Sequence record: NZ_CP118109.1
DNA: 64,000 nucleotides
Reading direction: 5' to 3' (one strand)
From: a plasmid
Below the pieces are notes generated by a model. It saw only the letters and a list, made by a program, of their open reading frames with translations. It had not been told where the DNA came from and did no database searches. Numbering within the stretch: position 1 is the stretch's first letter; each line of letters begins with the position of its first letter. Shown here one piece after another: positions 6,384-60,890 of this stretch. A program made the position numbers and the translations under genes.

Positions 6384-6397
6384 TGTAAGGCGTTACA
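6384..6397. promoter_or_regulatory. palindrome-family copy 1: TGTAAGGCGTTACA, 34 nt upstream (minus strand) of the portal start, followed in gene direction by TATATAAT
   Basis: Minus-strand reading TGTAACGCCTTACA-tttttaa-TATATAAT. Confidence 0.5.
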
Positions 6398-6403
6398 CTT
6401 GTG

Positions 6404-7672
6404 CTAGACTGCGTATCCATTAGTCTCCAAATAACTAATTGCCCATTCTTCATCGATATTGCTTGCCTCTTGCAAATCCTCTAATATCCTCAAGAATCTT
6501 CTGATTTCCTCTTTTTTCTGAATAAGCTGGTATTGTTGACTATAGAAAATTGCCTCTTGCTGATAGAAACGAGTCATATCTGTAATGGATGAATCGTACT
6601 GATTTTTACTTTGCGATAGAGAACCGACAATGATTTCAGCCAGTGCATTCATGGATTCATTTGTATCCGATTGATTATAGAGCCAGTTCTTAACTCCGAC
6701 ACCGGATTTGGATTCCAGCTGCTGATAGAACCACTGCTGCTTTGAAACAAAGGATTCTTTCTGATCGTCAATCAGTGCATACTGCCCCTTCAATGAAGTC
6801 AGCTTGTCTTTTATGTTGCGGAAGGACAGTAGAACATAAGCAGCGACCGAAGACTTATCAGCAAGGGGTGCTACCTGTAGGATCATCCCTTTAAGATCAT
6901 CCTTCATGACAACAGCTGGATTCGTTATAAGAAACTGCATCTGATCAAGCAATTGAGAATACATTGCATATCGGTTTCGGTGTACATATGAAGTATCCGA
7001 TAGGGATACATGCAATGCTTCCATCTGTTGACGAGTCAGGTCTTGGTCATAAATCTGCCGCTCCAGTGAAGAGATTGTCGAGTTCGTTATGTCTTCCTCA
7101 TGGTTCTCCTCATCCGAATACGCAGACTGAATCTCATCTGTTAGCCGATTAAAGACTTGCTCTGCTTCAATCCATTGATTAATCATATTGGCTTCTGATT
7201 CTTCGACAGCACTAACCTCTGCGTTGCCTGTAATCTGAGTACGGTAGTGTCCGTCCACAAATTCAAACTGCATCGAGCAGGATGCCTTCATTCGGTATAG
7301 GATCGTGTAAATTTCAGCATCACCAGAAGCCCGCGGACCGCACAATATATCTTCTTGCTCAATAATTCTGCTCTGATCTCCTGATTCGAGGATTCCCTTA
7401 TACTCAAAGAAGCTAGGGGTTTGATTTCGATCTTCGATCATCTTCATTAAGACATTCATTCGCTCAACTAATTCTGAATAGCCCTTCAGAACACTTGTAA
7501 TTGTAAAATCCTCTGAACGAATAATCTTTTGCACAGTTGCCGGATTAATTCGAAAGAAGCGATCTTTCTTCGGCATCTTCAGATCCGGCCGATAGTTAAC
7601 CTGATTCCGTTCATAGGATGTATCTATACCACGCTGCCCAAAGATATCTTCCGACATGTTAATGACCTCCAT
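6404..7672 (-). CDS. hypothetical acidic protein, 422 aa, between terminase and portal
   Basis: Uninterrupted ORF in co-orientation. No recognisable motifs. Confidence 0.5.
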   Translation of the reverse strand: MEVINMSEDIFGQRGIDTSYERNQVNYRPDLKMPKKDRFFRINPATVQKIIRSEDFTITSVLKGYSELVERMNVLMKMIEDRNQTPSFFEYKGILESGDQSRIIEQEDILCGPRASGDAEIYTILYRMKASCSMQFEFVDGHYRTQITGNAEVSAVEESEANMINQWIEAEQVFNRLTDEIQSAYSDEENHEEDITNSTISSLERQIYDQDLTRQQMEALHVSLSDTSYVHRNRYAMYSQLLDQMQFLITNPAVVMKDDLKGMILQVAPLADKSSVAAYVLLSFRNIKDKLTSLKGQYALIDDQKESFVSKQQWFYQQLESKSGVGVKNWLYNQSDTNESMNALAEIIVGSLSQSKNQYDSSITDMTRFYQQEAIFYSQQYQLIQKKEEIRRFLRILEDLQEASNIDEEWAISYLETNGYAV

Positions 7673-7821
7673 AAAATATGTAAGGCGCAGAGATTAGTCT
7701 GCGCCCCAGGGAAAGAGAGTTTGATGAGCCTAGCCAGAAAGGATACAGGGGATTTTTGCCTTCCACCAGGCGGCCCAATGGCCACAAGGGACAACGCATT
7801 ACTTCAGGCATTCCAGAGGAT

Positions 7822-12796: not shown

Positions 12797-12973
12797 TTAT
12801 TTTCCTTCGTTTTGCTCCGATTCAATAGCTTTCGATAATAATCGTCTGGCTTCTGTTGCCCAATCACCTGGCTTGATCTTATCGAAATGATCTTTAATAT
12901 CTGTATCGACATCACGAATGATGACTTGGACTTTCGGCACCTTCCGTGCTTTCGTCTCTCTTTCTTCAGCCAT
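12797..12973 (-). CDS. small basic DNA-binding adaptor (ParR-like), 58 aa, not in the ORF track
   Basis: ATG overlaps the actin-like gene stop (TAATG). Translation MAEERETKARKVPKVQVIIRDVDTDIKDHFDKIKPGDWATEARRLLSKAIESEQNEGK. Order matches ParM then ParR. Confidence 0.45.
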   Translation of the reverse strand: MAEERETKARKVPKVQVIIRDVDTDIKDHFDKIKPGDWATEARRLLSKAIESEQNEGK

Positions 12974-14166
12974 TACGCTGCCTCGCTTTCGAATATATCT
13001 TTGATGAATCTTTCATAAACCTGCTCAAAGTTCAGACTGCCATCTTCCTGTTCCTTGACTTGGTTCATTGCCGCACGAATATAGAATCCATATACGTTCG
13101 CCATTTGCGGGTCGTCCACTACGGAGAAGGCTTGTACCTTACGCTTCGCAAACTCTTCTTTCAAGAAGTCTTGGAAGATATGTGCGCCCCCGCCTGAAAG
13201 CAAGATGATCTTCACACGGTTCGCATGCTGACCCCAAGACGTAATAACCTCATTTGCGATGACTGCAGAGATCTCCTTCGCGGCTTCTTCTACAAGATGA
13301 TACAGATTATGAGAAGCGCCATTGAACTCGATTTCTTCTCCACGAACGACTGAATCTAGTTCGTCATCCGTTGGGCTGTAAGCAACCCCAAACTCGTTAT
13401 CAAAGTGAATAGCCATACTCACTTTGAGTCGCTTGTACAGCTCAGCAGTCGCAAGTGTCGATCCATAAGTTCCCTCTTCCTCTACATATACGCCTTCGGA
13501 GAATAATGCATAATCTGTAGTGAGGTGCCCGATATCAACGATAGCAGTCAAAGCTCTGTAGAGCGTAGTCGTCAAAAGACCTTCTTTTGTGAAAGCGAAT
13601 TGTGTAGATGTTACACTTCCCTCTGGCTGTCTCAAGATTTCATATCCAATAACATTAATTTTCTTAGTGATTGTTTTTCCATAACCAAGGTAGATCACAA
13701 TTTCAAAACTTTGGTTTATGTACTCTTCCAACCGTGTGCGAATACCTTTATCGAAATCCTCATTCGGCAGACCAGTTGTTAAGTAGACATTATATTCTCC
13801 ATCTTCATGAGGAACACATAGTGCAAGATTGGTTTCAAACATAACTCTGAATGATGGATCGGATGCACGGTCATGATTGGTTGTCCGACTTGTAACCAGA
13901 AGCTTATTACTCTTCATTGCCTGTTCGCCTACATGATAGAAACCGTCAGTAGTCTTCACCATCAAGCGAGATTCATCGACTTCTGTGTGCTTAAAGGAAT
14001 TAGCGAACTTTTCATTTGTAGGCATGACAGTACTCGGTATGACACCGAACATGCCTAAGCTCGACATGCGCTTGCTTCCATTAAAACCAATATCAATTGC
14101 TGCAAGCTCAAAATCAAATAAGTCTTCTAGCTTTAACTTCAAATCTTTCACTTTTTTCACCGCCAT
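12973..14166 (-). CDS. actin-like ATPase (ParM/Alp-type segregation protein)
   Basis: Actin-fold motifs: phosphate-1 AIDIGFNGSK, phosphate-2 IVDIGHLTTDYALF, adenosine motif ILLSGGGA. 397 aa. GGAGG RBS. Confidence 0.8.
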   Translation of the reverse strand: MAVKKVKDLKLKLEDLFDFELAAIDIGFNGSKRMSSLGMFGVIPSTVMPTNEKFANSFKHTEVDESRLMVKTTDGFYHVGEQAMKSNKLLVTSRTTNHDRASDPSFRVMFETNLALCVPHEDGEYNVYLTTGLPNEDFDKGIRTRLEEYINQSFEIVIYLGYGKTITKKINVIGYEILRQPEGSVTSTQFAFTKEGLLTTTLYRALTAIVDIGHLTTDYALFSEGVYVEEEGTYGSTLATAELYKRLKVSMAIHFDNEFGVAYSPTDDELDSVVRGEEIEFNGASHNLYHLVEEAAKEISAVIANEVITSWGQHANRVKIILLSGGGAHIFQDFLKEEFAKRKVQAFSVVDDPQMANVYGFYIRAAMNQVKEQEDGSLNFEQVYERFIKDIFESEAA

Positions 14167-14187
14167 GATTGTTTTCCTCCTAATTCG

Positions 14188-14213
14188 ACATGTTATATCA
14201 TATTATAACATGT
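14188..14213. promoter_or_regulatory. perfect 10-bp inverted repeat ACATGTTATA-N6-TATAACATGT, 20-50 nt upstream of the actin-like gene start (candidate parC-like operator/centromere)
   Basis: Read directly. Arms are exact reverse complements. Confidence 0.5.
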
Positions 14214-14742
14214 TCTGATGTATTCTCTCGTAAACGATCATAACATATTTAATAGATACCAAGCAACCCTTAATTTGGACAACAAAAAAAGCAGCAGGTG
14301 TGCCGCCCGCCGCTTTTCGAACAAGTGAAGCTGTATGAGGTTGGAGATCTCACGTATCCTTCGCTGAGTTATATTTTAAGCCATTTGGCAAAAAATATCA
14401 AGAACGTATGTTCTCTTTTTGTGATTTCTTTTCACAGAAAAGGCTTCAAGACCGTTGCCAACGTTTCAACATATGATTTCAACACTGGAGGTGTAATTTT
14501 AACAGATAGAGGGTGGCAGTCCTATGACCTGTTGGCTATTTACTTGAAGCCCTTTTCTCTAAAAAGAGTATTGGCATACTCCGGATTATTTTTTTGTAGG
14601 AGGTGTCGTGAGCCCATGCTAAGCATCACGATTAATCCGGAGCAAACCATACTGTGTCCAGTCAGCTATTTTGAGGAGAGCTGCTGCAGTCATCTGCCAA
14701 GTCGGGTCTGTGTTCTCGACTTGAGTTTATTCTATACGATAA

Positions 14743-14756
14743 TGTAATGCATTACA
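14743..14756. promoter_or_regulatory. palindrome TGTAATGCATTACA (family copy 3) with TATA-rich boxes 6-7 nt away on both sides
   Basis: Exact 14-bp palindrome in the 690-bp intergenic region between 14166 and 14855. Confidence 0.5.
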
Positions 14757-16777: not shown

Positions 16778-17122
16778 CTAGGCCCCCGCCTTCCTCTTAG
16801 CCTTCATCTTTTGTTTCAAGCGGCAGGAATCACATGCCCTCTTTGTGCTGTTGTTCTCTTTCCCGCATATTGTGCATAGTCCATTTGCTAAACGATATGA
16901 TCGCTTCGCTCTGGCATAGTGCACAACGCATAGTCCTTTTGAGATGGGCTTCTTATGGCACCCTTCTTCGATACACTCCGTATGCTCGTACATCGGTCTC
17001 CCTGTTCCTGCTAACACAATGGTGGGATCGTTATGCCGCTTAATTCTTCTGTAATGCTTCCAGCAGTGCCCTTTTGCGATAACTTCTTTTCCACAACGAG
17101 GAAATTCGCATATGGCTTTCAT
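16778..17122 (-). CDS. Cys-rich putative zinc-binding protein with repeated CxxGC...GLCxxHYxR modules
   Basis: CEFPRCGKEV..GHCWKHYRRIKRHNDPT, CIEEGCHKKPISKGLCVVHYARAKR, CTICGK...CDSC. Confidence 0.5.
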   Translation of the reverse strand: MKAICEFPRCGKEVIAKGHCWKHYRRIKRHNDPTIVLAGTGRPMYEHTECIEEGCHKKPISKGLCVVHYARAKRSYRLANGLCTICGKENNSTKRACDSCRLKQKMKAKRKAGA

Positions 17123-17322
17123 TTCATTACGTCTTCCTGCTGATAGACTATAGATTGTTGCGCTTCTCCCACCGTCTGCAAGCTATCTCCTTGAACATAG
17201 ACCGCATACGTATTTCGATCTATTGAATCCATCTCAATCCCAATGATTGAGATTCCCTCCTTAAGATGAAGCGCTTGCTCGAGCACTTCTTTCGTCACAA
17301 CAATCTTTCCTTGCTTTTTCAT
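17119..17322 (-). CDS. hypothetical protein, 67 aa
   Basis: Operon member with overlapping start/stop. Confidence 0.4.
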   Translation of the reverse strand: MKKQGKIVVTKEVLEQALHLKEGISIIGIEMDSIDRNTYAVYVQGDSLQTVGEAQQSIVYQQEDVMK

Positions 17323-17696
17323 TATTTGCTTGCCTCCAATTTATGTTCGTCTTCTTCTGCGCGCTTTTTAAGATAATGCCTCCTGCATAGCTTTCTTGCT
17401 AGAGCTGGTTTGCTGCACCCCTCTTCAATACATTCGCAATCGTTATTGGACTTGCCACCGATCATGTATTGATTACATCCCATTTCTTTTCTTCGATTCT
17501 TTGCATAGCAATTAGGGCAGAGGCCGAGCGCTTTCACTTTGTTAATACCACATGCTGAGCAAGACTTTGGTCTATCATAATCTTGCTTCTCGTATGTTGG
17601 GTCTCCGTATAGCCATTTCCTCCGATAGTGTTTTGCACAAAGCCCTGTTGATCTAACATGCTCGTTGCATCCTTCAATCGCGCATTCTTTTGACAT
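17322..17696 (-). CDS. Cys-rich putative zinc-binding protein, paralog of 16778..17122
   Basis: CAIEGCNEHVRSTGLCAKHYRRKWLYGDPT, CSACGINKVKALGLCPNCYAKNRR, CIEEGCSKPALARKLCRRHYLKKR. Confidence 0.5.
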   Translation of the reverse strand: MSKECAIEGCNEHVRSTGLCAKHYRRKWLYGDPTYEKQDYDRPKSCSACGINKVKALGLCPNCYAKNRRKEMGCNQYMIGGKSNNDCECIEEGCSKPALARKLCRRHYLKKRAEEDEHKLEASK

Positions 17697-17729: not shown

Positions 17730-18260
17730 TTATTTTTTGTTTACGAATCCCGTTGCTACGTTTAAACCTATTAGCATATCAGGGTTCACGCCTTCATCAA
17801 ATACAACAGGAGTATCTTGGTCAAACCCTTTCACACTTGCATCGAAAACCGACATAATGCGATCATATTTTGATTGTTCTTTTAATGCCTCTGCAATACT
17901 TCTGTGTCTTACAACAACGATACCTTCGATATCTTTAGCAAACTCAATCAAAGCAGTTGTTTTTCCGACTTGTCTGAGATATTCATCGACATAAATATAA
18001 TTATGATTTTCGGCAGCGTGAAGTAATTTATTCTTGATCGTCATGAGCATCATGGGCCTCAAAGCTTCTCGCAGATCGTCCGACTTCTTCTCTTCTTTTT
18101 TAATTAAATCAAATGACTTTTCAATCGTGCCGCTATCTCCTTCGTGTTTTTCAATAGCTAACATAATCTGCCCATTTGTAGGATACTGTTCGAATGGTCC
18201 TTCTGTTTTGATATAACCGCCGTCTTTTGATATGTGTATTAAGAATGTTTCTTTTAACAT
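17730..18260 (-). CDS. small P-loop ATPase, 176 aa
   Basis: Walker A LRQVGKTTALIEFAKD. First gene of the minus-strand operon, downstream of the palindrome at 18305. Confidence 0.5.
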   Translation of the reverse strand: MLKETFLIHISKDGGYIKTEGPFEQYPTNGQIMLAIEKHEGDSGTIEKSFDLIKKEEKKSDDLREALRPMMLMTIKNKLLHAAENHNYIYVDEYLRQVGKTTALIEFAKDIEGIVVVRHRSIAEALKEQSKYDRIMSVFDASVKGFDQDTPVVFDEGVNPDMLIGLNVATGFVNKK

Positions 18261-18304: not shown

Positions 18305-18318
18305 TGTAATGCGTTACA
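18305..18318. promoter_or_regulatory. palindrome TGTAATGCGTTACA (family copy 4) in the divergent control region
   Basis: 46 nt upstream of the minus-strand gene start at 18260, 185 nt upstream of plus-strand 18504. TTGACA at 18326. Confidence 0.5.
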
Positions 18319-18503
18319 TTTTATTTGACAACAATTAAATTTTCTATAGGGGGCAATTTTCTATAAAAAAATTTTTGCGTGGGGTACCTAGTTGTTTATT
18401 GTTGGCTGATGGTAGCGTTCGACGCCCCACCCCCTCAACAATAAGCAACCACATTAGGGTTGGCAGTGATCCCAATCAAACTGCACATCGAAAGGAGTCT
18501 ATC

Positions 18504-19359: not shown

Positions 19360-22300
19360 ATGTCAACTGATTCAAAGAAAGCTATGTCGTCCGTCCCTAT
19401 GTCCAACAAACAAACTAAAACAAACAAAAAGGAGCAATCTACAATGACTAACAACAAACAAGCACAAATCAACAAGCAACTGGCTGAGGTAAACCGTCTT
19501 TTCAACAAAGCTATCAAAGGTAACAAACTAGAGGCGCAAATGTCTGATTACAAGTCTACTTCTGTAGTATTGGATGCTATTGCTGAGTTCCCAGGATTGG
19601 GCGTTAAAACAAAGAATTATGAGGCTATCACAGCTGCTATCGCTAGTGGTAAGGATATCCGTACTGTTATGGAGAACCCGGAGCTTACTGGTGTTCCTAA
19701 GAATCAATATCGCTTCTTCCGTGCATTCATGGAAGAGAAAGGTGCAGAGATTCCTGCTATGGTGATTGCACCTACTCGTAAGCGTGTACGTACTGTATCT
19801 GTCGATCTATTGAAACATTCCCGCAACGAAGCTGGTGAAGTGGTGCTCAACGCGGAAGTCAGCTATCAATCTCAGTCTCAGCTTGCTGATGCATTCGGTA
19901 AATTGGTTCCAGCTACAGATAGCAATGATCTACACTTGGATGCGACTCACATTGTCTATATCGATTTGAATATCGCTGATCAAGAGAATCAAGAAATGAA
20001 AGACTTGCAAATCGAGATCGTCCGTAATGGATTCTATTACACAGTGGAAGGCGTTACACGCAAAGCTAACTTCTTTATTCAGACAGCAAATCAAACTCGT
20101 CAATTGCAAGGTATCTATATTGCAGAGGACTTCATGACGATTCCTCAAGCATTCCGCAAGCTTGGTCATAGCTTCCTGTCTTATTGCAAACTGGATAAGG
20201 CTACTGGTGTCTATACACTGGATATCACGAAGTATCTGAAACGTCCAGGTCTGTCTGGTACAAGCTCTGTGCCATCTAAGGTAGTAACCTTCCCTAATGC
20301 TCATATCGACAAGCTGCCTAACATGAGAACAGGAGAATACTTGGTTAACTCTGATCGTCACTCTATGGCAGTGATTGATGATCGCTTTGCTAAGATCAAG
20401 AATGGTAAGTTCAAAGCATTCTATAACAACCGTGTAGTCACTGTATCTGCGGTTGATGGTACATTCACAGCTACATGGAAAGAAGGACGCATGACTAAAG
20501 AAGAAGTCCTGCCTATGAACTATCTGAAGCTTGGCGTAGGCGATGGCTTGGTTCTAGCTTCCGAGTCGATCTACTGGGCATTGAAGGCTGAGTTTGGCAA
20601 TGATTCCGATGCATGGCAAGTACGTATCACCCCATTCGTTAAAGGCTTGATGGTATTCGTGCCAGGCTTGCGTCAATACTATGATGCAGATATCGTTGCA
20701 TTCAAGTCTGCTGTGAAAGGTGACTTCCGTTTGCTTGCTGATAGCGAAGGTAAGATTGACTTTGGTATTGAGCTGCGTATTGCACGCTTTGCTAAGCGTC
20801 CTGCTATGAAGTCTGAGTATGTAGAGCTTCCATATCAGTTTGCACATGTATCCAGCATTACAGCAGAGCAAATGATTGATGTTGCTCAACCACGCCTGGA
20901 TGAAGCTAAGAGTGTACTTACTAATCCTGCACTGATTCAAAAGTATGCAGGGGTTGCTCACTTGGAGAAGCTGAACAAGCTGACTCTTGCACAAGCTGAG
21001 TTTCTACGTGATCGCTCCCTTGTTTCTGTATTTGCTAACTTCATGCACTATGCTCCATTCACATTCCAAGATGCTTACATGCAAACAAGAGCACTGAGAC
21101 TGATGGGGCAGCAAGTAGACAAATGGGTTGCTGGTACGATTCCTGTAGAAGGCGAGTATCGCTTCATGGTTCAAGATCCATATGCATTGCTTCAAGCTGT
21201 GGAAGATGAGAATGGAGATATGATTGTCCCTGATCACGTTGGTCTTAAGCCACACCAAACATTCATGACAGCACGCGATAACCAACACTTTGTAGAGGGC
21301 CCTGTTGCATCCTTCCGTAACCCTGCTATTGCTAAAGGTGAAGGACGTATCTTGAATGGTGTAGCTCCACAAAACTATGTGACTGCTTCTGCTAAAGGCG
21401 CATTCAACTCTGTATGTGTAATGAGCTGCCATGACTTGGATACATTCGCTGAAGGCGGAGCTGATAACGATGGTGATGAAACATTCATTACACAAGTACG
21501 TGCTATCGTTAATGGCATCATGGGTAAAGATGGTCAATCTAAGTTCTTGGCTATGCTTGACCTGCATGTAGATAAAGATGGTGAGTGGTCTTCTGGATGC
21601 CCGTTCCCTATGGAATCTGATGAGAAGCTTGCATTTGATGCTCCTTGCGTATCACACGATGGACAATTCAAAGTGAAGTTCACTGCCGATCAATATAATG
21701 ATGCATTCATTCAAGCTGTACATGAGCTAAGCAAAGAGTATGTCATTCGTACACTGACTCCTAACAAGATCGGTCAACTGACTAACATTGCTACTCGTCT
21801 TGCTGATGCTGTACGTAAAGTAGGATATATGTATGCAGAGAATACCAATGAGTTTGGTCAAAAGACTGAACGTTCAGATGCTGAGAAACAAGAGCTGATT
21901 AGAGAGATCGCTCGTATGGAAGATATGATCGACTTGATTCGTCTGGCTCAAGGATGGGAGATTGACCGTGCTAAGCATGGTGGTGCATATGAGGAAGCAT
22001 TGGCTGCTGAATTGGAGTTCATCAACAATCCTCCAAGATATGCAGGATTCCAAGAGTCACCTAAATCCAAGCGTCAATGGATCAAGCAAGCATGGCTCGC
22101 ACATCACAAAGGTGCTGAGGGTGGAGTAGACACAGGTTCTGTAATGTCCCGTGTGCATAACCACATGAAAGCATTCGTACAAGAGAATGTAATCGACAAG
22201 TCCGAAGAGATCATGAACGATGTAGAGAACAACAACCTGATTCATATCCTGAGAGCTGAGTATGTTATTGATCCAGTTATCTATGACAGAATCGCTAACT

Positions 22301-27394: not shown

Positions 27395-27418
27395 ATTATT
27401 ATGTTATCCGATATATAA

Positions 27419-27432
27419 TTTAACGCATTACA
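27419..27432. promoter_or_regulatory. palindrome-family copy 5: TTTAACGCATTACA
   Basis: One mismatch to consensus. 27 nt upstream of ATG 27459, followed at +7 by TAGATT. Confidence 0.4.
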
Positions 27433-32691: not shown

Positions 32692-32811
32692 TTGACTGTT
32701 TTCGGTATCGTGCTTGGTATCTATGTAGCATGCCATTTAATCGGTGACTATCGCAAAATCCGTCGTTTTGTACTAAAATGTAAGGCAATACAACAAAAAT
32801 ATATGAATTGA
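32692..32811 (+). CDS. 39-aa hydrophobic/basic peptide (type I toxin-like) with TTG start
   Basis: GGAGGGAGG RBS 9 nt before TTG. Translation LTVFGIVLGIYVACHLIGDYRKIRRFVLKCKAIQQKYMN. Preceded by a 400-bp non-coding region. Confidence 0.35.
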   Translation: MTVFGIVLGIYVACHLIGDYRKIRRFVLKCKAIQQKYMN

Positions 32812-32825: not shown

Positions 32826-33353
32826 ATGTATCTTGTACAATACAGAGACGACACCAACTATAGCGAACTTAAAGTGCAGTACTGCAAGGATCCATTAGAC
32901 GTAGAGAAGATGTGGAATCTGGATGATTCGGCCATATCTATCGTGGATGTTATTGAAGTGGATGAATACTTCAGACTTGTTGTAGCCGGGTCACGCGACT
33001 TCGATGATTACGCACTGCTTAGCAGACATTTGGATCATCTCTTGCAACACAAGAAGAACATCGTGATTGTTTCAGGAAATGCTATAGGTGCAGACATGCT
33101 AGGAGAGCGATATGCCAATGAAAGAGGATACTTTATAGATACATACATCCCTAATTGGCGCCCTAGGGGTCCGAGAGGTCCTGTTGATCGTTCTGCTGGA
33201 CATAGGCGAAATGCTGATATGGCCGATAATGGCGATGCTCTTGTGGCCTTCTGGGATAGCATTAGCAAAGGAACAGCAGGCATGATTAATATCGCTAAGA
33301 ATAAAGGATTACAGGTTCGTGTAATACATTACAATAAAGAAGGTGTCGTATGA
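32826..33353 (+). CDS. DUF2493-like / SLOG-superfamily Rossmann protein
   Basis: LVVAGSRDFDDY and IVIVSGNAIGADMLGERYA motifs. GAGGAGA RBS plus ATG 32826. Confidence 0.5.
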   Translation: MYLVQYRDDTNYSELKVQYCKDPLDVEKMWNLDDSAISIVDVIEVDEYFRLVVAGSRDFDDYALLSRHLDHLLQHKKNIVIVSGNAIGADMLGERYANERGYFIDTYIPNWRPRGPRGPVDRSAGHRRNADMADNGDALVAFWDSISKGTAGMINIAKNKGLQVRVIHYNKEGVV

Positions 33354-35525: not shown

Positions 35526-35782
35526 TGAAAAGATCATTCATGGATATTATCGGACCTGGCTTGGATTTTATTGCAGATCGTTTCATGCTTTGCTTATTAA
35601 CGGCTGCCATTCTGGCTTCACTAGCTATTTTATTAGAACCCTTCGGCATTTTTATTATTCTTGCTGCCGCTGCTTTGTTTACATTTTATATTAGATGGGA
35701 TCTCCGAAGACAAAGTATTGAAGAGATCATTATTGAGGAGGAAGAGATTCAATGGGAAGACAAATCAAAACGACATGCTTAA
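35525..35782 (+). CDS. small membrane protein, 85 aa
   Basis: Hydrophobic LCLLTAAILASLAILLEPFGIFIILAAAALFTF. Confidence 0.45.
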   Translation: MKRSFMDIIGPGLDFIADRFMLCLLTAAILASLAILLEPFGIFIILAAAALFTFYIRWDLRRQSIEEIIIEEEEIQWEDKSKRHA

Positions 35783-36213
35783 AATGTAACGAGACTGTAA
35801 CACTAGACTTTGGTGATGCAAACTATTCTCAAGCTTTAAAGATGGCAGAAAAGCTAGATAGGCGTGCTATGGAATGCCCTGGCTTTCATGTGGAAATCGG
35901 TGGCTGGAATAAATATTGGCAACTAAATCGCATTATTGAGGAAGCATATACTGAGGAAGAAAAGGATATATGTCGTGATATTGTAAGGCGTATCACAATT
36001 CAAATACTCGATGGCAAATATTTAGAGAAGGAACATGAGTTTGGAACTGAGAAAGAGACCGGATTATTCCTTCAAGGCCTTATAGATGGCGGACTAAAAG
36101 AAGATTCCCGCGTTCATGTAAGGCATTACAATTACTTTAAAGAAGAACTCGGAGATTATGAGGCTCCAGCGAAAACAGCACTCACTTATTTAAGCGGAAG
36201 CCATCTGTGTTGA
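35752..36213 (+). CDS. hypothetical protein with N-terminal CxxC, 153 aa
   Basis: GAGGAGGAAGAG RBS plus ATG. Overlaps the previous gene by about 30 nt. Confidence 0.45.
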   Translation: MGRQIKTTCLKCNETVTLDFGDANYSQALKMAEKLDRRAMECPGFHVEIGGWNKYWQLNRIIEEAYTEEEKDICRDIVRRITIQILDGKYLEKEHEFGTEKETGLFLQGLIDGGLKEDSRVHVRHYNYFKEELGDYEAPAKTALTYLSGSHLC

Positions 36214-42447: not shown

Positions 42448-42458
42448 GAGGAATTATC

Positions 42459-42884: not shown

Positions 42885-42891
42885 TTATATT

Positions 42892-43707
42892 ATGATCAAG
42901 GAAATCAATGTAGCTGATTCTTTATCAGGATTTTCTATTGTTCAGATTGGCGTCGGAGGTAATGGAGGATATTTAACCCAGCGTCTTTCAAAAATGCTTA
43001 AATCTTTCCTGCAGACGAATCCAGTTTTTCGCTTTACTTATACGCTTATTGATGGGGATCGATTTGAAGAGAAGAATCTCCTGCGGCAACCATGCATCGA
43101 AGAAGATATTGGTTTTGTAAAGTCTCAAGTGTTAGCTGATCGTTATGGGAATGTTTATGACTTTCCGATTCATTATAAGGATGAGTACATTGAATCTATT
43201 CAAAGTATTGAAGAAGCATTTAGCATTGGGGGTCATCGGGTAAAGATTCTTATCGGCTGTGTTGATAATCATGCAACACGCAAGATCATGCATGAATACT
43301 TTCATAGCTGCACAGGCGATATTATCTACATTGATAGTGGAATTGATCCTTACGATGAAGATGATCCAGCTTCAGGATATTCTGGACAGATTGTTTGCGG
43401 TCTTAAATTAAGCGGAAAAGTAGTGCTACAGCCGGTTGGAGATCTATATGAAGATATCTTAACAGATACGGAATCAAAGCTCCCTACAGAGTCATGCGGG
43501 GATATTGTGGCTAATCAACCGCAGCGCATGATGACAAATGAAATGGCAGCTCTCGTTATGGCTGGCTATCTAAATAACATATTAGGCTCACGCACTCTTA
43601 TCAGTCATGTAACAAATTTCAACGCAAGACTATTATCAACACGCTCTGAATATATTACTGCAGGACAATTCGCTTTAGCAGAAAATGTCCGTTTAGTTAC
43701 AGCATAA
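42892..43707 (+). CDS. E1-like ThiF/MoeB-family adenylyltransferase
   Basis: VQIGVGGNGG P-loop, LIDGDRFEEKNLLRQP (E1 D.D...NL.RQ block), DIGFVKSQV, IGCVDNHATRKIM, candidate catalytic Cys in ESCGD. Confidence 0.75.
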   Translation: MIKEINVADSLSGFSIVQIGVGGNGGYLTQRLSKMLKSFLQTNPVFRFTYTLIDGDRFEEKNLLRQPCIEEDIGFVKSQVLADRYGNVYDFPIHYKDEYIESIQSIEEAFSIGGHRVKILIGCVDNHATRKIMHEYFHSCTGDIIYIDSGIDPYDEDDPASGYSGQIVCGLKLSGKVVLQPVGDLYEDILTDTESKLPTESCGDIVANQPQRMMTNEMAALVMAGYLNNILGSRTLISHVTNFNARLLSTRSEYITAGQFALAENVRLVTA

Positions 43708-45093: not shown

Positions 45094-45107
45094 TGTAACG
45101 CATTACA
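45094..45107. promoter_or_regulatory. palindrome TGTAACGCATTACA (family copy 6a)
   Basis: Exact consensus. 97 nt upstream of ATG 45204. Confidence 0.5.
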
Positions 45108-45128: not shown

Positions 45129-45158
45129 TGTAATGCATTGCAAAACATGGGGTATAAT
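45129..45158 (+). promoter_or_regulatory. palindrome-family copy 6b (TGTAATGCATTGCA) overlapping a TTGTAA -35, then TATAAT at 45153
   Basis: TTGTAA...GGTATAAT. Palindrome occupies the -35/spacer of a sigma-A-like promoter. Confidence 0.5.
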
Positions 45159-49138: not shown

Positions 49139-49708
49139 ATGGCAGCGGCCGAAAAACCAGTTTACTATAATGAATTGCTTAATGATATGCCGCAGGAGTG
49201 TATGCTGCAACAATCTCATGACATGTTGCGTCAAGATATACAAAACTGCAGATTATGTCCGTTTGCTAAACTTACCAAGCCGCTGCCTCTCAACAATTTT
49301 GATGCTTCAATTATGATCGTCGGGGAGACTCCCGACGATGTTTTGTATGATGGCAAGCGAGGCGGAAAACTTGGTAAATTATTGGTTGAAATGGGTATTG
49401 ATCTTAAAGACGTCTATTTAACTTCCCTTACAAAATGCTCAGAGTCCCAAGACTCCGCCAAATGTGCCCATCATCTTACCGGTGAGATTTTAACAGTTCG
49501 CCCCTCTATTATAGTTTGTTTAGGATACAAGACTTCTAGTACAATTATGCAACAACCTCAGTTTGGTCAGTATGTTCAGATAGCGCCATATACACATGCA
49601 TTAGCAACATATTCATTTGCTGATGCAGAAGAGGCGATTGTTTTAGACACGCTTCGGGGGCAGTTTAACTATATTTTAAATGTTTTACAGGGGATGAGGA
49701 CAGCATGA
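49139..49708 (+). CDS. uracil-DNA glycosylase, family 4-like (Fe-S)
   Basis: CRLCPF..., IMIVGETPD, later C/H residues (KCSES...CAHH). AAGGAG RBS. Confidence 0.55.
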   Translation: MAAAEKPVYYNELLNDMPQECMLQQSHDMLRQDIQNCRLCPFAKLTKPLPLNNFDASIMIVGETPDDVLYDGKRGGKLGKLLVEMGIDLKDVYLTSLTKCSESQDSAKCAHHLTGEILTVRPSIIVCLGYKTSSTIMQQPQFGQYVQIAPYTHALATYSFADAEEAIVLDTLRGQFNYILNVLQGMRTA

Positions 49709-49947
49709 GCAAGGACTACACTATCAACGAAGCAGCCAAGATCCTTGGCGTTCATAAGGATACGATCAAGTACTGGGAGGAAAGAAATCTAATTCCCAGA
49801 GCTAGACGTTCTATTAAAAACAGTCCACGCCATAGTTATCGCATCTACAATGTGGATGAGATCAGGGCTATCGCTAAAATACGAGGCATTTACGATGTTG
49901 AATTGGACGCCGCGATACACAACTTTCATATTTGGGAAAGAAAGTAA
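49705..49947 (+). CDS. MerR/excisionase-type HTH DNA-binding protein, 80 aa
   Basis: YTINEAAKILGVHKDTIKYWEERNLIP is a classic MerR-family HTH-plus-wing N-terminus. Confidence 0.6.
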   Translation: MSKDYTINEAAKILGVHKDTIKYWEERNLIPRARRSIKNSPRHSYRIYNVDEIRAIAKIRGIYDVELDAAIHNFHIWERK

Positions 49948-49986: not shown

Positions 49987-50015
49987 TTGACACTATACGA
50001 CAAAGTATTTATAAT
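49987..50015 (+). promoter_or_regulatory. consensus sigma-A/sigma-70 promoter TTGACA-17-TATAAT
   Basis: ttgacactatacgacaaagtatttataat, perfect hexamers with 17-nt spacer. Confidence 0.65.
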
Positions 50016-50074: not shown

Positions 50075-50500
50075 GTGGTTTTAGCAATGGAAATAAGACA
50101 GCTAGAGAAGAATCTTGCTATGGAATCCGCCAGAATCGGAAAGAAAGTCATTGGGCGGGGTCCTACAGAATGCAGAGTTCGCATTATAGATTCCATGATT
50201 GTAATTCGTTGCAGGCTAGAAATGACGCAGTTAGAAAAGCTAATGTACAAGCATCTTGAAATATCAAATGTAACGCATGCCATGATTGAAGACTATAAAA
50301 AAATTCTTCTCCCTATGATTAGCGTCACACTTGCTTCGATTCACTCAGATCTTGAAGTTACAGACTCTTATCTGAAACTTAATACAGAAGGCGGATTCTC
50401 TGTTTTTATTTTGAATATGAATATGGACATTGAAAAATTAATAGCACAAGAAAGAGTGACCGGCTCTAAGTCGGTCACTCGAAAGATAGCAATTAACTGA
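50075..50500 (+). CDS. hypothetical protein (GTG 50075 or ATG 50087 start)
   Basis: First ORF downstream of the consensus promoter. GRGPTECRVRII motif of unknown significance. Confidence 0.4.
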   Translation: MVLAMEIRQLEKNLAMESARIGKKVIGRGPTECRVRIIDSMIVIRCRLEMTQLEKLMYKHLEISNVTHAMIEDYKKILLPMISVTLASIHSDLEVTDSYLKLNTEGGFSVFILNMNMDIEKLIAQERVTGSKSVTRKIAIN

Positions 50501-50651: not shown

Positions 50652-50690
50652 TGTAACGCATTATATCTTTTCACTTTGTAACGTGTTATA
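50652..50690. promoter_or_regulatory. two degenerate palindrome-family copies (7a TGTAACGCATTATA, 7b TGTAACGTGTTATA) plus a third weak copy at about 50711
   Basis: Tandem operator-like arrangement about 80-115 nt upstream of GTG 50768. Confidence 0.45.
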
Positions 50691-50767
50691 CTTTATCGTA
50701 ACAAGTGAAATTGTATTGCGTTGCTTTGTGCCAAAAGGCGATGCAAAATTGCGAGGAGGATGAAGTC

Positions 50768-51406
50768 GTGTCTGAAAATTATCTGGAAAGTCGCCTGACG
50801 AAGAATGAAATGTTAGTTTATGAGTATATAAAGCTTAAAACAGAAGAACAGGGATCCGTACAAGAATCTATGATTCAAATGGCTGAAAGCATTAGCGAAA
50901 TGTTTAAGGATCGCATCTCTGTCCGAAAAGTTCATTCCGTGGGCGGCGCAAGTTCCAAAAGCAAAAAAGGTTCTGCCATTAGCACCGCAACGATTTCACG
51001 CGCGGTTAATCGTTTGAAAGCTGAAGGCATAATTGATATTAGACAGTCGCCTGATAGCACGACACCACACGAGTATGTCTTCTTAGGCTTGCCTAATGAA
51101 GAAGAACAAGTGTCTGAAATACTCAATCTGGCTGACAAATTGAACAGTCATTTACAGCGGTTTGAAAAGCTTCTAGTGAATCGTGATAAGGAGATTCATC
51201 AGTTGAAAACGGAGAAGAAGCAGCTGTATGTTCAGCTCGATGCAAAGAATGAGGAGATCCGCGCTTTGAACGAATCATTAGCTTCGCTGCAGAATGAGTT
51301 GAAACAAATCAACACAGATGGAGTGAATCCGTTTAATGACGGTCAATTCGTAGGAATCACGGACATTGGTGATGGCGTTCGAGCCTATCTCGTAAAGACA
51401 CACTAA
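50768..51406 (+). CDS. putative DNA-binding regulator (winged-helix N-terminus plus coiled coil)
   Basis: GAGGAGGA RBS plus GTG 50768 (alternative ATG 50741). EMLVYEYIKLKTEE...ISRAVNRLKAEGIIDI is wHTH-like. C-terminal heptad coiled coil. Confidence 0.45.
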   Translation: MSENYLESRLTKNEMLVYEYIKLKTEEQGSVQESMIQMAESISEMFKDRISVRKVHSVGGASSKSKKGSAISTATISRAVNRLKAEGIIDIRQSPDSTTPHEYVFLGLPNEEEQVSEILNLADKLNSHLQRFEKLLVNRDKEIHQLKTEKKQLYVQLDAKNEEIRALNESLASLQNELKQINTDGVNPFNDGQFVGITDIGDGVRAYLVKTH

Positions 51407-53932: not shown

Positions 53933-54090
53933 TGTTGTGGCGCTGCCTTACGGTGGCGCCTTTTTTAATGCATTAGCGTATCAGAAGACGCATGATCATA
54001 AATTCGTGCTTCTTCTAATGCAATAATTCATTTTTCTTTGAAATACTGCAGATTTTTCTTGTTTTTCCCTATGTTATAGTTTATATTGAA

Positions 54091-54104
54091 TGTAACGCAT
54101 TACA
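54091..54104. promoter_or_regulatory. palindrome TGTAACGCATTACA (family copy 8), 17 nt upstream of ATG 54122
   Basis: Exact consensus. Candidate TTGTTT (54059) -18- TATATT (54083) upstream would put the transcript start inside the palindrome. Confidence 0.5.
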
Positions 54105-58304: not shown

Positions 58305-58703
58305 ATGTCTCACTTTCAAGCTTACAAATGTGAAGTAAATAATGTCGAGTTCGTAAAGAAGGCTCTTACTGAAATGGGTCTTGGATACAAAGAAAACACG
58401 ACAATCATCGACTACTACAAGCAGTCCCGCAATGTTGTTCTGGCTGTTATCGATAGTAACGGAAAGCTGCAACCAATCGGGTTCCAAGAGAACGTTGTTG
58501 ATGGCAAAACTAAACTCGAATGCGTAGCTGACTGGTTTATGACTGGCTTCTCTGAAAAGTCCTTTACAAATCAAGTGGCACAGCTGCACGACAAGTACAT
58601 GGTTATTGACATGTGCGAATCTAATGGCTTCTCTATCGATTTTGACAGCATTGCTCATAATGATGCCGGCGAATTGGAGCTAGTCGCTTCTACTTGGTCC
58701 TAA
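58305..58703 (+). CDS. hypothetical protein, 132 aa
   Basis: TAGGAGGAA RBS plus ATG. Confidence 0.5.
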   Translation: MSHFQAYKCEVNNVEFVKKALTEMGLGYKENTTIIDYYKQSRNVVLAVIDSNGKLQPIGFQENVVDGKTKLECVADWFMTGFSEKSFTNQVAQLHDKYMVIDMCESNGFSIDFDSIAHNDAGELELVASTWS

Positions 58704-58739
58704 TAAATTTAACTACTCATTAAATCGGAGGTATTTGAC

Positions 58740-58946
58740 ATGCAAGAGAGAAAAGTAAAGTTCACTATTGGTAAAGAAGGCGGCGTGGCATTTGAAGTTT
58801 TGAATGGTGAAGGTGCAGATTGCACGAAGATCACCAAGGATATCGAAGTTCATTTGTCCCAAAACGGCACAATGGTTGATGAGGGCAAGAAACCTGAGTA
58901 CTACGATGGCGGCGGCCTCACTGATGTGTTTAACAGCCTAGACTAA
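58740..58946 (+). CDS. hypothetical protein, 68 aa
   Basis: GGAGG RBS plus ATG. Confidence 0.45.
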   Translation: MQERKVKFTIGKEGGVAFEVLNGEGADCTKITKDIEVHLSQNGTMVDEGKKPEYYDGGGLTDVFNSLD

Positions 58947-59269
58947 TGGGCGACAGCATATTTTGGACTTATGTCTCTTTATCTTTTACCGTAAGCATAC
59001 TGATTGGGCTTTCGAAGGTTCTGCCTCGGAAGCCTGGATCAGAGCGAACGCGAGATAGAGGAGCCTTTCTAACTGTATCTATGTTCATAGTCAATATTAT
59101 GTACACTGCCGCCTTTGGCTGGAACATGAGAGCAGCATCAACAGCAGAAATGGTATTAGACATAATTAACGGTATATTAATGGGTCTTGGATTCATGATG
59201 ATGTACAAGGACGTAACTTTTATTAAAAAAGCAAAGGAGACCGACCGTGACCGAACAGAAAAGAACTAG
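58946..59269 (+). CDS. small membrane protein, 107 aa
   Basis: Three hydrophobic helices. TAATG overlap. Confidence 0.45.
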   Translation: MGDSIFWTYVSLSFTVSILIGLSKVLPRKPGSERTRDRGAFLTVSMFIVNIMYTAAFGWNMRAASTAEMVLDIINGILMGLGFMMMYKDVTFIKKAKETDRDRTEKN

Positions 59270-60833
59270 ACGCACTACAAAGAGTCAGCCGGTTGCTAAA
59301 GAACAAAATCTTGATCTGACAGCACTACCGGATATTACTCCATTTGTGACGAATCCGGATGGAAATGTATATGCGGTAACGAATCTCACAGAGGAGTTTA
59401 TAGCTGTCTTGTTTGCCTGGGTGAGCCGATCACCGAAGTCATTCAAGGAACATCTACTGAAAGCTATTCAAGATGGGCTCATCAATGCAAGCGATTATCA
59501 AGGAAAGGATTCCTTTGAGAAGCTTTCGAAGAAGGCCCAAGACTTCCATGAGAAATGGACGGTTTCTTATGGACACAGCAGCGTTGCGGAGCATGCGAAT
59601 GCTCACGTAGGCATCGAGAAAGTCTCCAGATTAGCTTCTGCTGAGCTGGAGCTGTCCAACACTTTCTATTCCATTACTGAGTATTCTCAGCGCTATCAGA
59701 AGCCTCAGAGAGGGGACTGGCATAATCCAGTGCCTAAATCGATGCCTAATCCAAACGGAATCACCAGAGACATGGTGCCTAATCCGCTTTGGCAAGAGTT
59801 CGAAGATTTTATGAACGAATGTTACGATGTATTCGAACAATTAATTGATGGCGTATATAAGCATCTAAAAGAAGCTGATGATAAATTGTTCCATCCATCA
59901 TCTGGAACCGCAAATATAAAACGCGATAATGAGATTATGAAACTGGCGTTCGAAGATGCACGGTACGCGTTGCCACTTGCTATGCATACTCAACTGGGCA
60001 TGACAGCAAACGGACGTACTTGGCGGGACGGCATTGCTACTCTCTACTCAAGCTCCTATCCGGAGGTCATTAAGCTTGCTGGTGATCTGAAAACAGAGAT
60101 CACTAAAGTACTCCCAACATTGCTGAAGCATGCTGTGCCTTCTCAATATAAGGTGAATAGCAAGCAGCGTATTAAGCATCGTTTTGCTGATCAGCCTAGC
60201 GCAACAAAGGTGAGTAATCTTGCAACCCTAATCAAAGGCCCTTCACCTAAGAAGGCAATCGAAACAATTATTGCTGAAGCCATTGTGCAAGAGAATGGTA
60301 TTCCTTATGAGGAAGCTATGCGCCGGGCAGAGAACATCTCTAATCCGACCGAAATCATCAAAGAGATGCTTTTCGAAATTGGGAAGCATGACACCCCGCC
60401 AGAATCTTTCCGCGGGATTGATTTTTCTTTCGAACTACTTGTTTCTGAAGCCAACTGGCACCAGCTGCTTCGCCATAACCGTAAGACTGACTTTATTTAT
60501 AACCAGCCTTCTCCTTATAATGGCGTTACAATTCCGCCTCGTATTGCTGAAGCAGGTTTGCAGGGTCTGCTCTTTGATCTAGCAGAGAAAGCAGAAACTC
60601 TTTATGAGAAGCTGCTTGGCACAGTAGGACATGAATATACAGCACCATATATTGTCTTGAATACTCACCGCCGCCGCATTGTAGCTCACTTTGATCTGTG
60701 GGAGGCTTACCACTTGATCAATCTGAGAACATCGGAAGAAGCACAGTGGGATATTCGCGAGACATTTGAAGAAGTCTATCGCCAGCTTCATTTGCTTTAT
60801 CCTGATCTGATTGATCAAGCAAAAAGAAGATAG
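59247..60833 (+). CDS. tandem-duplicated ThyX-like (flavin-dependent thymidylate synthase fold) protein with non-canonical RHR motifs
   Basis: Half 1 YGHSSVAEH...VSRLASAELELS...EYSQRY. Half 2 NWHQLLRHNRKTDF...LRTSEEAQWDIRE. Compare ThyX HGHETPFEH, RHRxxxxxxxS, AQWEI. AAAGGAG RBS plus GTG start. Confidence 0.5.
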   Translation: MTEQKRTRRTTKSQPVAKEQNLDLTALPDITPFVTNPDGNVYAVTNLTEEFIAVLFAWVSRSPKSFKEHLLKAIQDGLINASDYQGKDSFEKLSKKAQDFHEKWTVSYGHSSVAEHANAHVGIEKVSRLASAELELSNTFYSITEYSQRYQKPQRGDWHNPVPKSMPNPNGITRDMVPNPLWQEFEDFMNECYDVFEQLIDGVYKHLKEADDKLFHPSSGTANIKRDNEIMKLAFEDARYALPLAMHTQLGMTANGRTWRDGIATLYSSSYPEVIKLAGDLKTEITKVLPTLLKHAVPSQYKVNSKQRIKHRFADQPSATKVSNLATLIKGPSPKKAIETIIAEAIVQENGIPYEEAMRRAENISNPTEIIKEMLFEIGKHDTPPESFRGIDFSFELLVSEANWHQLLRHNRKTDFIYNQPSPYNGVTIPPRIAEAGLQGLLFDLAEKAETLYEKLLGTVGHEYTAPYIVLNTHRRRIVAHFDLWEAYHLINLRTSEEAQWDIRETFEEVYRQLHLLYPDLIDQAKRR

Positions 60834-60841
60834 CACCACAG

Positions 60842-60890
60842 CATCCTTTATGCTAAAATAGTAATGCATTACATTTAGACATAAAGGATG
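60842..60890. promoter_or_regulatory. 11-bp inverted repeat CATCCTTTATG/CATAAAGGATG enclosing palindrome-family copy 9 (AGTAATGCATTACA, 60860-60873)
   Basis: Read directly. Lies between the ThyX-like stop and the next start (60899). Confidence 0.5.

Follow-up and report, generated by a model that had tools for sequence, protein, structure and literature searches.

The 64,000-nucleotide (nt) stretch of plasmid DNA analysed here (sequence record NZ_CP118109.1; the whole stretch is called the window below) contains repeated copies of a 14-bp palindrome, TGTAAYGCRTTACA, whose distribution, promoter context and conservation are the subject of this study. Judged from its sequence, the window is part of a Paenibacillus jumbo phage-plasmid of about 200 kb, because it carries phage genes, because its relatives have been deposited as plasmids of 200-260 kb, and because Paenibacillus sp. 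TCA20 encodes proteins identical to those of the window on a contig of 214,846 bp (UniRef and protein records). Genes are directed leftward between positions 1 and 18260 and rightward from 18375 on. The left arm encodes the major capsid protein, the portal and an actin-like (ParM/Alp7A-type) partition protein. The right arm encodes an RdRP-family (YonO-like) RNA polymerase of 1210 amino acids (aa) with an ADNDGDE motif, and also SNF2 and UvrD helicases, RecA, SSB, UDG, ThyX and a radical-SAM activase.

The portal protein shows 55-83% identity to four IMG/VR contigs and 34-40% identity to Bacillus phage 0305phi8-36 and related jumbo phages, and at the sequence level the element is distantly related to 0305phi8-36. 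Its closest annotated relatives are 200-260-kb plasmids of Paenibacillus rhizovicinus, Bacillus thuringiensis, B. halotolerans, B. paralicheniformis and B. licheniformis; these plasmid relatives come from complete genomes and carry ParM/actin-like partition genes. A further relative, the sole result of a genome scan, is a separate contig of 194,705 bp from Oceanobacillus profundus. A near-identity DNA search with two window segments against deposited phages gave no match, and single-protein scans of IMG/VR recovered the closest relative only. Extension beyond the ends of the window led to fragmentary contigs of a different sample.

For the description of the palindromes, each site was oriented by the nearest gene having a ribosome-binding site. 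After this orientation two layouts were apparent, a majority in which the palindrome follows a -10 hexamer (start-site type) and a minority in which it precedes one (-35 type). An initial annotation of the sequence had listed ten copies; the copies located in the window are as follows, with all -10 elements being predicted.

6384..6397: copy TGTAAGGCGTTACA, one mismatch; -35 type, portal-operon promoter on the minus strand, -10 TATAAT at 6369-6374
14743..14756: perfect palindrome TGTAATGCATTACA; -35 type, minus strand, -10 TAGAAT at 14729-14734; heads a candidate non-coding RNA of about 440 nt
18305..18318: exact copy; divergent control region between a leftward operon (17730-18260 onward) and the rightward operon with the phage RNA polymerase
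27419..27432: copy TTTAACGCATTACA, one mismatch; start-site type; -10 TATAAT at 27414-27419 overlaps its first base; ATG 27459 lies 26 nt downstream
32779..32792: intergenic copy, two mismatches, not listed earlier; TAAAAT at 32774-32779 abuts, then ribosome-binding site and ATG 32826
33320..33333: copy TGTAATACATTACA, one mismatch, not listed earlier; in the 3' end of open reading frame (ORF) 32826-33353, 16 nt before ATG 33350
36117..36130: copy with one mismatch, not listed earlier; in the 3' part of ORF 35752-36213, without promoter-like context
45094..45107: exact copy; upstream half of a tandem pair, 35 bp apart
45129..45142: copy TGTAATGCATTGCA, one mismatch; -35 type; -10 TATAAT at 45153-45158
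50652..50725: three-copy cluster before a winged-helix gene: 50652 (one mismatch), 50677 (two) and 50712 (three)
54091..54104: exact copy; start-site type; extended -10 TGTTATAGT at 54072-54080, gap 10 nt; palindrome followed by ribosome-binding site and ATG 54122
60860..60873: copy AGTAATGCATTACA, one mismatch; start-site type; extended -10 TGCTAAAAT at 60851-60859 abuts (gap 0); then ATG 60899
20045, 25841, 37276, 50200, 50269 and 55290: intragenic copies, two mismatches each

The pair at 45094/45129 precedes an operon that begins with a 3D-domain peptidase and continues with SSB, RecA and UDG up to a MerR-type gene, while the copy at 54091 heads a radical-SAM/NrdG-like operon. Downstream of the copy at 60860 and ATG 60899 lies the UvrD-like helicase gene. 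This copy is enclosed by the 11-bp inverted repeat that the initial annotation had described, with CATCCTTTATG at 60842-60852 and CATAAAGGATG at 60880-60890. Within the cluster, an extended -10 element, TGTTATACT at 50684-50692, forms part of the right half of copy 50677.

The motif was counted in the window and tested for intergenic enrichment, as the initial annotation had suggested for the whole phage genome. Four exact copies of TGTAAYGCRTTACA are present in the window versus 0.00 expected from shuffled sequences, and with up to two mismatches there are 19 copies versus 0.65 expected and a maximum of 4 in the shuffles. The most repeated 10-12-mers of the window are words of the palindrome. 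Nine of the eleven copies with at most one mismatch are intergenic, although intergenic DNA makes up 13% of the window according to a simple gene map (binomial P = 5.6e-7). This enrichment is far above chance, so that a chance origin of the palindrome is ruled out and the motif is real. All ten copies of the initial annotation were found again, but its list was not complete, since nine more lie within two mismatches. It had counted three perfect copies; four of the ten (14743, 18305, 45094 and 54091) are exact to the degenerate consensus and 14743 alone is a perfect palindrome, while 6384, 27419, 45129, 50652 and 60860 deviate at one position and 50677 at two. The statement that no copy lies inside a gene holds for these ten, the copy at 27419 being intergenic only if its gene starts at ATG 27459. 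It does not hold overall, as eight of the further copies are intragenic (33320, 36117 and the six with two mismatches).

In sites of the start-site type, the palindrome begins -1 to 10 nt after a -10 hexamer that is often extended by TGn (TGnTATAAT), and a ribosome-binding site comes 2-10 nt further on, ahead of the start codon. Window examples are 27419, 32779, 54091 and 60860, and also 50677 with its built-in -10. In the -35 type, a -10 hexamer without TGn lies 8-10 nt beyond the palindrome; this layout is found at 6384 (portal operon), 14743 (non-coding RNA) and 45129 (peptidase-to-MerR operon). An earlier view that the TATA box always lies on one genomic side of the palindrome was replaced by these two layouts. 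The initial annotation had described a TATA hexamer following the palindrome, which would place the motif at the -35/spacer position of promoters. This is correct for 6384, 14743, perhaps 18305 (all with respect to minus-strand genes) and 45129. At 27419, 32779, 45094, 54091 and 60860, the -10-like hexamer lies upstream or overlaps and a ribosome-binding site follows directly.

Among 82 unique sites collected from the whole family of related elements, 40 are followed within 45 nt by a ribosome-binding site and a start codon, with 9-45 nt between the end of the palindrome and the start codon. The 18 nt just upstream of these 40 sites contain a -10-like hexamer in 29 cases (3/40 in control windows), an exact TATAAT in 17 (0/40) and TGnTAnnnT in 13 (1/40). 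With the transcription start assumed about 7 nt past the -10 hexamer, the centre of the palindrome is at about +1 to +11 in the start-site type and at about -28.5 in the -35 type. The overlap of the sites with core promoters is a sequence prediction. Most family copies would lie just downstream of an extended -10 element and over the predicted start site, which is the position of a repressor site rather than of an activator site or a -35 substitute. Since the site slides by 11 nt relative to both the -10 hexamer and the ribosome-binding site, it is neither a rigid promoter element nor an activator site in fixed phase, and its constant location over the predicted core promoter is what one classically expects of an operator acting by occlusion.

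The pattern of sequence variation indicates the form in which the palindrome is read. Both half-sites are kept irrespective of the direction of the gene, positions 6 and 9 vary and the central GC is kept. No case with base changes on both sides of a pair was found among the 82 unique family sites (59 inspected), and several single changes break pairing. As RNA, the palindrome would form a hairpin of only -0.5 kcal/mol. Conserved half-sites, the lack of compensatory changes and the negligible hairpin therefore argue for recognition of double-stranded DNA by a two-fold symmetric protein. An action in RNA, for instance as a hairpin in the 5' untranslated region that sets mRNA stability or translation or is bound by an RNA-binding protein, would fit the location of the palindrome in the 40 sites mentioned above, where it usually ends 2-10 nt before the ribosome-binding site. 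It disagrees with the hairpin energy and the variation just described; moreover, with gaps of -1 to 3 nt the predicted transcription start falls within the palindrome, and copies of the -35 type lie upstream of the -10 hexamer and would not be transcribed from that promoter. We regard this explanation as the least probable of those considered here.

Conservation of the sites extends well beyond the window. In the closest relative, IMG/VR 3300018875_000003, whose proteins share 37-90% identity with those of the window, the palindrome is kept at the equivalents of 14743, 18305, 45094/45129, 50677, 54091 and 60860 as well as upstream of the portal gene. Elements with 48-60% identity in the portal and 30-32% in the RNA polymerase also retain it. 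The portal-upstream site is present in at least nine elements (including L001-L004, L010-L013 and the B. licheniformis plasmid pSCDB14) and always consists of the palindrome, 7 nt and T(G/A)TATAAT. Orthologous sites correspond to 14743 (L001 at 1662, L018 at 6042, pSCDB14 at 5524), to 18305 (L018 at 8693, L034 at 4786, pSCDB14 at 7838), to 54091 (L019 at 13288, L080 at 1322, pSCDB14 at 47517) and to 60860 (L019 at 20381). The tandem pair 45094/45129 is conserved in L019 at 4276 and 4310, and the A-to-G variant of 45129 is kept both there and in pSCDB14 at 36746. By sequence comparison, the palindrome is thus kept at orthologous predicted promoters in 200-260-kb relatives from Paenibacillus, Bacillus and Oceanobacillus.

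Plasmid pSCDB14 (NZ_CP014843.1, 205,480 bp), which was assembled whole from five pieces and is syntenic with the window, provides a view of a complete element. It contains 43 copies with at most two mismatches (10 exact, 12 with one and 21 with two), which precede replication, ribonucleotide-reductase (nrd) and virion operons. A 32-kb accessory region (65.6-97.8 kb) has no copy of the palindrome; its genes encode flagellin, CsrA, an LXG toxin, a transporter, a DnaA-N-domain protein and a replication terminator protein. The plasmid also encodes a sigma-70-family protein and a RemA-family regulator (101858-103387 and 75223-79052 were noted). In an exact-word scan of IMG/VR, several copies per contig occurred only in the phage-plasmid family among the matches listed, and other matches were single. 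Phage 0305phi8-36 has no intergenic copy and only two matches with two mismatches in 219 kb.

Considering these data, we assign a probability of roughly 0.55 to the interpretation that TGTAAYGCRTTACA is the operator of a dimeric, element-encoded global regulator, mainly a repressor, of host sigma-A-type promoters. This interpretation is preferred because the position over the core promoters is variable, the two-fold symmetry is strict and the hairpin energy is negligible. The initial annotation had already proposed an operator for a global phage regulator, which turned out to be the best-supported reading, given that the sites are kept at orthologous promoters of elements with proteins 30-60% identical and overlap predicted core promoter elements. 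In this model, the regulator would bind palindromes that are laid over the promoter cores heading most operons. At sites of the start-site type, the bound protein would cover about -6 to +18 and block binding or escape of RNA polymerase. At the -35 type, where the palindrome would cover -36 to -22, it could occlude the polymerase or might replace the missing -35 element. The outcome would be a coordinated silencing of the lytic programme of about 200 kb and its release upon induction. Silencing of this kind would be the simplest role, because the element apparently persists as a low-copy plasmid with actin-like segregation genes. Promoter activity of the -10-like hexamers, protein binding at the sites, the sign of regulation and the identity of the binding protein are inferences of this model.

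The candidates for this protein are few. Pfam scans of nearly all window proteins found DNA-binding domains in a small number of genes only, namely those at 49705-49947, 50768-51406 and 63267 onward.

49705-49947 (plus strand): candidate 1, MerR-type winged-helix protein, 80 aa; short single C-terminal helix (residues 64-79) after the wing
50768-51406 (plus strand): candidate 2, winged helix, coiled coil and small C-terminal domain, 212 aa; the identical TCA20 protein is named MarR family in UniRef
63267-64000 (plus strand): weaker candidate, winged helix, acidic linker and coiled coil; ORF leaves the window; 25% identical to the pSCDB14 counterpart

The 80-aa protein matches MerR_1 (8e-11) and MerR (1e-10) in Pfam, and its matches among PDB sequences are a MerR-family regulatory protein (4ua1) and CarA. 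Its AF2 model has a pLDDT of 83, and all 50 listed Foldseek matches belong to the MerR family, with RacA and BldC at about 2 Å root-mean-square deviation. The protein has neither the long antiparallel coiled coil nor an effector domain. It thereby shares its fold with RacA, BldC and D29 Gp36, MerR-type domains without long coiled coil or sensor (PMC4914108, PMC5859096, PMC12266134). Among these, the RacA domain binds a 14-mer palindrome, the GC-rich ram site TGACGCCGGCGTCA, whose many copies serve chromosome anchoring and not promoter control (PMC4914108). The phage repressor Gp36 is a small MerR-like protein (PMC12266134); like BldC, it binds to direct repeats in multimeric form (PMC5859096, PMC12266134).

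The gene order UDG, MerR-type gene, about 300 nt and winged-helix gene is conserved in pSCDB14 and other plasmids. In tblastn searches, the MerR-type and winged-helix genes were found in the same nine plasmids. One of the nine, B. cereus pG9842_140, has no portal match, yet it carries three exact palindromes in 25.6 kb. B. thuringiensis pBTHD789-2, which belongs to the 0305phi8-36 clade, was not among the tblastn matches for either gene and has no palindrome in 42 kb. In 0305phi8-36 itself there was no match to the MerR-type protein, and the winged-helix protein was matched weakly, in its N-terminal part only. Within the family, identities are 54-59% for the MerR-type protein, 26-31% for the winged-helix protein and 30% for the polymerase, and the putative DNA-contacting recognition helices are conserved in both candidates. 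Of the three helix-turn-helix (HTH) genes named in the initial annotation, the motif therefore co-occurs with two (49705-49947 and 50768-51406), and the third (63267) is a weaker case.

The palindromes in front of the winged-helix gene are imperfect in all six elements compared. Such imperfect operators suggest that this gene is autoregulated or is the first to escape repression. The likeliest binder of the palindrome would be the 80-aa MerR-type protein or its constant neighbour 50768-51406, and on the sequence evidence the two are about equally likely. It is a weaker but still appreciable possibility that the binder is a protein encoded elsewhere in the element or in the host.

Three observations were made beside these genes. 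A perfect consensus sigma-A promoter (TTGACA, 17 nt, TATAAT; 12/12) is located at 49987-50015 on the plus strand between the MerR-type gene and gene 50087-50500. The latter, an MpsC/DUF2294-like gene, holds the two-mismatch copies 50200 and 50269 and has no counterpart at the same place in pSCDB14. In comparison with 63267-64000, region 2433-3348 of L136, which stems from a different sample (SRR23401452), differs by 1 nt in an A-run, which splits the gene into a 78-aa winged-helix protein and a C-terminal ORF; this split is either an assembly error or natural frameshift variation.

Several points weigh against a repressor operator read by one of these two proteins. Every promoter is a prediction from the DNA sequence, and a generic scan for sigma-70 promoters with two hexamers was not enriched in the region (33 found versus 39 expected). 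The assignment of promoters is based on the statistics of -10 and extended -10 elements, because the promoters lack a -35 element and the two-hexamer scan showed no enrichment. Good copies also occur inside ORFs without promoter context, at 36117 in the window and at 164927 in pSCDB14. The two candidate genes share an identical distribution and are inseparable by phyletic pattern or conservation of the recognition helix, and the regulator could lie outside the window. In addition, the 14 bp are identical while proteins have diverged to about 30% and the hosts span two bacterial families, which could reflect a conserved host factor. Finally, the spacing in the -35 type is nearly fixed (8-10 nt to a -10 hexamer without TGn) and fits activation as well as repression.

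The last point leads to a dual-function switch, in which the same dimer represses extended -10 promoters and activates those of the -35 type by replacing the -35 element. Activation would be possible at the latter because both a -35 match and TGn are missing there. PhoB-type or MerR-type activators and T4 MotA stand in for a -35 element in a similar manner, and late structural genes of phages are more often activated than directly repressed. The near-fixed spacing, the occurrence of TGn in about 1 of 17 -35-type sites versus roughly half of the start-site-type sites, and the portal promoter layout kept in at least nine elements are in line with such a switch. However, the -35 type comprises three orthologous groups only, so that the fixed spacing amounts to three independent points. 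With its centre at about -28.5, a bound dimer would collide with sigma region 4 if no special mechanism is involved, and other structural operons of pSCDB14 have copies of the start-site type (149003 and 178854). We consider the dual function possible but doubtful. A specific form of it is a two-way switch operated by a single sensor-less MerR-type protein, with repression at about 40 extended -10 promoters and activation at the few that lack a -35 element; we give it the same low degree of confidence or a slightly higher one.

A conserved host transcription factor exploited by these elements is another explanation. There is precedent in B. thuringiensis phage GIL01, which exploits the host LexA. 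The consensus of the catabolite-responsive element (cre) bound by CcpA is TGWAANCGNTNWCA, and operators of the LacI family have a near-invariant central CG. The sites of TnrA, a MerR-family protein, and of GlnR follow TGTNA-N7-TNACA. The palindrome resembles cre in its TGTAA/TTACA half-sites and its length of 14 bp, and its TGTAA half-site resembles that of TnrA, whose spacing is 3 bp longer. Operators of the PadR family read ATGT-N8-10-ACAT (PMC3506622). The TGT-N8-ACA of the palindrome has exactly the PadR frame and is always present; in the ten exact pSCDB14 copies, the flanking positions are A in 6/10 and T in 4/10 on one side and T in 7/10 on the other. A host factor would thus agree with the canonical PadR frame and the cre half-sites, and also with the identity of the 14 bp across Paenibacillus, Bacillus and Oceanobacillus elements with proteins diverged to 30-55%. 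On the other hand, the motif tracks the MerR/winged-helix pair of the element and is missing from related B. thuringiensis plasmids of the same host group, and with GC in place of CG at its centre it departs from what defines cre and LacI-family operators. To our knowledge, no Bacillus regulon motif matches the palindrome, and the exact motif strings had no occurrence in the searchable literature. In total, a host factor appears unlikely.

Individual protein families were also discarded. A cre/LacI-family site is ruled out by the GpC dyad centre in every copy with at most one mismatch. A PadR protein had no match among the window proteins scanned with Pfam, and the PadR reading was dropped after a local tblastn search gave only a weak match (E = 1.2) in ORF 63267. 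The PadR-like HTH gene of pSCDB14 encodes the replication terminator protein (RTP, 2e-48), and ORF 14298-14747 on the plus strand, at the position of the PadR-like ORF208 of 0305phi8-36, is not a credible protein.

The initial annotation had offered, as an alternative to an operator, the specificity element of a phage-specific transcription system. Two features are relevant to this proposal, the RNA polymerase of the element and a second repeated motif.

19360-22992 (plus strand): RdRP-family (YonO-like, two-barrel) RNA polymerase, 1210 aa; ADNDGDE metal-binding motif near 21463; start possibly as early as 19087
23577, 26872, 27370, 30131, 34058, 36220, 46720 and 53132 (plus strand, the gene strand): eight copies of a hairpin motif

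The polymerase was identified through its DNDGD motif and through homologues carrying Pfam PF05183; the ORF of 1301 codons itself gave no match in Pfam, no match among PDB sequences and no informative phage match. As a promoter or initiator element, the palindrome might be read by this polymerase or by a sigma-70-family protein of the pSCDB14 type. A more specific version would be a recognition or initiation element of the YonO-like polymerase, perhaps extruded as a mini-hairpin with the adjacent TATAAT box as melting region. The virion polymerase of phage N4 reads promoters as extruded hairpins. The palindrome is phage-specific and located upstream of operons, the element encodes a suitable polymerase, and the YonO promoter is still undefined (PMC5467207). 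For 0305phi8-36, whose lineage likewise encodes an RdRP-family RNA polymerase, a 21-bp phage-specific intergenic motif was described and proposed as target of the phage polymerase by Hardies et al. 2007 (PMC2147016).

The geometry of the palindrome is not that of such an element. A -10-like box lies either -1 to 10 nt upstream or 8-10 nt downstream and the start codon is 9-45 nt away, which is not rigid; the variation of about 11 nt in the spacing to the -10 hexamer and the ribosome-binding site contradicts the proposal of the initial annotation. A two-fold symmetric site carries no direction, and the flanking boxes are textbook sigma-A extended -10 elements. The separate hairpin motif weakens the proposal further. 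The over-represented element of 0305phi8-36 is a GC-rich hairpin, nnnCGT-TCGC-ACGn'n'n' followed by TTnTGTA, with 18 copies (terminal repeat counted once) that are all on one strand and show compensatory changes in the outer stem. The hairpin of the window has a variable 5-bp stem with compensatory changes around C-TAAC-G, followed by 3 nt and GGCTTTTTGA; its copies directly follow stop codons, and the next gene begins 30-50 nt further on. With the same sequence, it was not found in pSCDB14. On structural comparison, this strand-specific hairpin, and not the palindrome, is the counterpart of the 0305phi8-36 element, because both have the same architecture (compensatory stem, one strand) and the palindrome is absent from 0305phi8-36. 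The hairpin could be a promoter or phage-polymerase signal, a terminator or a processing site. We therefore consider it highly unlikely that the palindrome is a promoter of the element's own machinery, and the extruded-hairpin version is more improbable still; if true, it would be the first promoter defined for the RdRP-family polymerase class.

If the palindrome is the operator of an element-encoded repressor, the systems closest by mode of action would be, by analogy, the C1 operators of phage P1 and the gp71 stoperators of mycobacteriophage L5. P1 C1 binds as a monomer to many asymmetric 17-mer operators, which are scattered over the genome of a plasmid prophage with its own partition system and overlap promoters of lytic operons. 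The network described here is similar in its dispersed sites, the predicted promoter overlap, plasmid maintenance and an own partition system. It differs in the symmetric 14-mer, the lack of sequence or protein homology, the roughly twofold larger size, the Gram-positive background and the own RNA polymerase. L5 stoperators are asymmetric 13-mers that occur in dozens of short intergenic copies, down-regulate transcription globally, are orientation-dependent and affect the polymerase during elongation within transcription units. In contrast, the sites of the window are symmetric and located on the predicted core promoter or start site. Neither C1 nor gp71 is related to the candidate proteins.

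Repression from dispersed operators is itself well known, and its case in phage-plasmids of about 200 kb would be new. The family concerned consists of jumbo myophage genomes living as plasmids in Paenibacillus, the B. cereus group, B. licheniformis, B. halotolerans and Oceanobacillus. In these genomes, one 14-bp word would tag about 40-50 promoters each and provide a map of the operons and of the part that is switched as a block. It delimits a site-free accessory region, which is probably expressed in the carrier state, and may set host-polymerase promoters apart from hairpin signals possibly read by the YonO-type polymerase. The search for the master regulator would be narrowed to two adjacent genes, and since cultivable carriers exist, for example B. 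licheniformis SCDB 14, the model is directly testable.

Two further features of the window lie next to the palindrome at 14743.

14285-14728 (minus strand): candidate non-coding RNA, about 440 nt, without credible ORF, upstream of the actin-like partition gene
12797-14213 (minus strand): partition module with the actin-like ALP/ParM gene 12973-14166 and a 58-aa protein at 12797-12973

The candidate non-coding RNA starts just past the palindrome and its -10 hexamer and extends to a GC-rich hairpin with a T-run. Its identity to L018 is 83%, with conserved and variable blocks in alternation and with insertions and deletions. An Rfam search of conserved non-coding stretches, including 14285-14728, gave no family. 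In the partition module, the 58-aa protein resembles a ribbon-helix-helix adaptor. The module has a palindrome of its own, ACATGTTATA-N6-TATAACATGT at 14188-14213, which covers a -10 element, TGTTATAAT, and is a separate operator or centromere candidate.

Adjacent to the palindrome at 18305, the leader 18319-18503, which precedes gene 18504 and the polymerase operon, shares about 90% identity with the closest relative, more than most neighbouring proteins do. Within the leader, TTGACA lies 6 nt beyond the palindrome, and there are also a G/C-rich stem and two direct repeats of AATTTTCTATA; the predicted fold is no better than that of shuffled sequences (z = -0.74). On the other side, the first leftward operon under this palindrome includes a pair of Cys-rich paralogues (16778-17122 and 17322-17696, minus strand) with repeated CxxC...CxxHYxR units, likely zinc fingers, which resemble gp9/gp10 of 0305phi8-36. 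In L034, the homologue is the first gene after the palindrome.

In the right arm, a Pistol self-cleaving ribozyme was detected at 31988-32052 on the plus strand between two small genes (Rfam RF02679, 47.3 bits; gathering score 34.5). Genes for Prok-E2_D (E2-like) and ThiF (E1-like) proteins adjoin at 41776-43707 on the plus strand, and DUF1257 and DUF2997 genes are located at 58305-58946. The ThiF, E2-like, DUF1257 and DUF2997 genes are all retained in pSCDB14.

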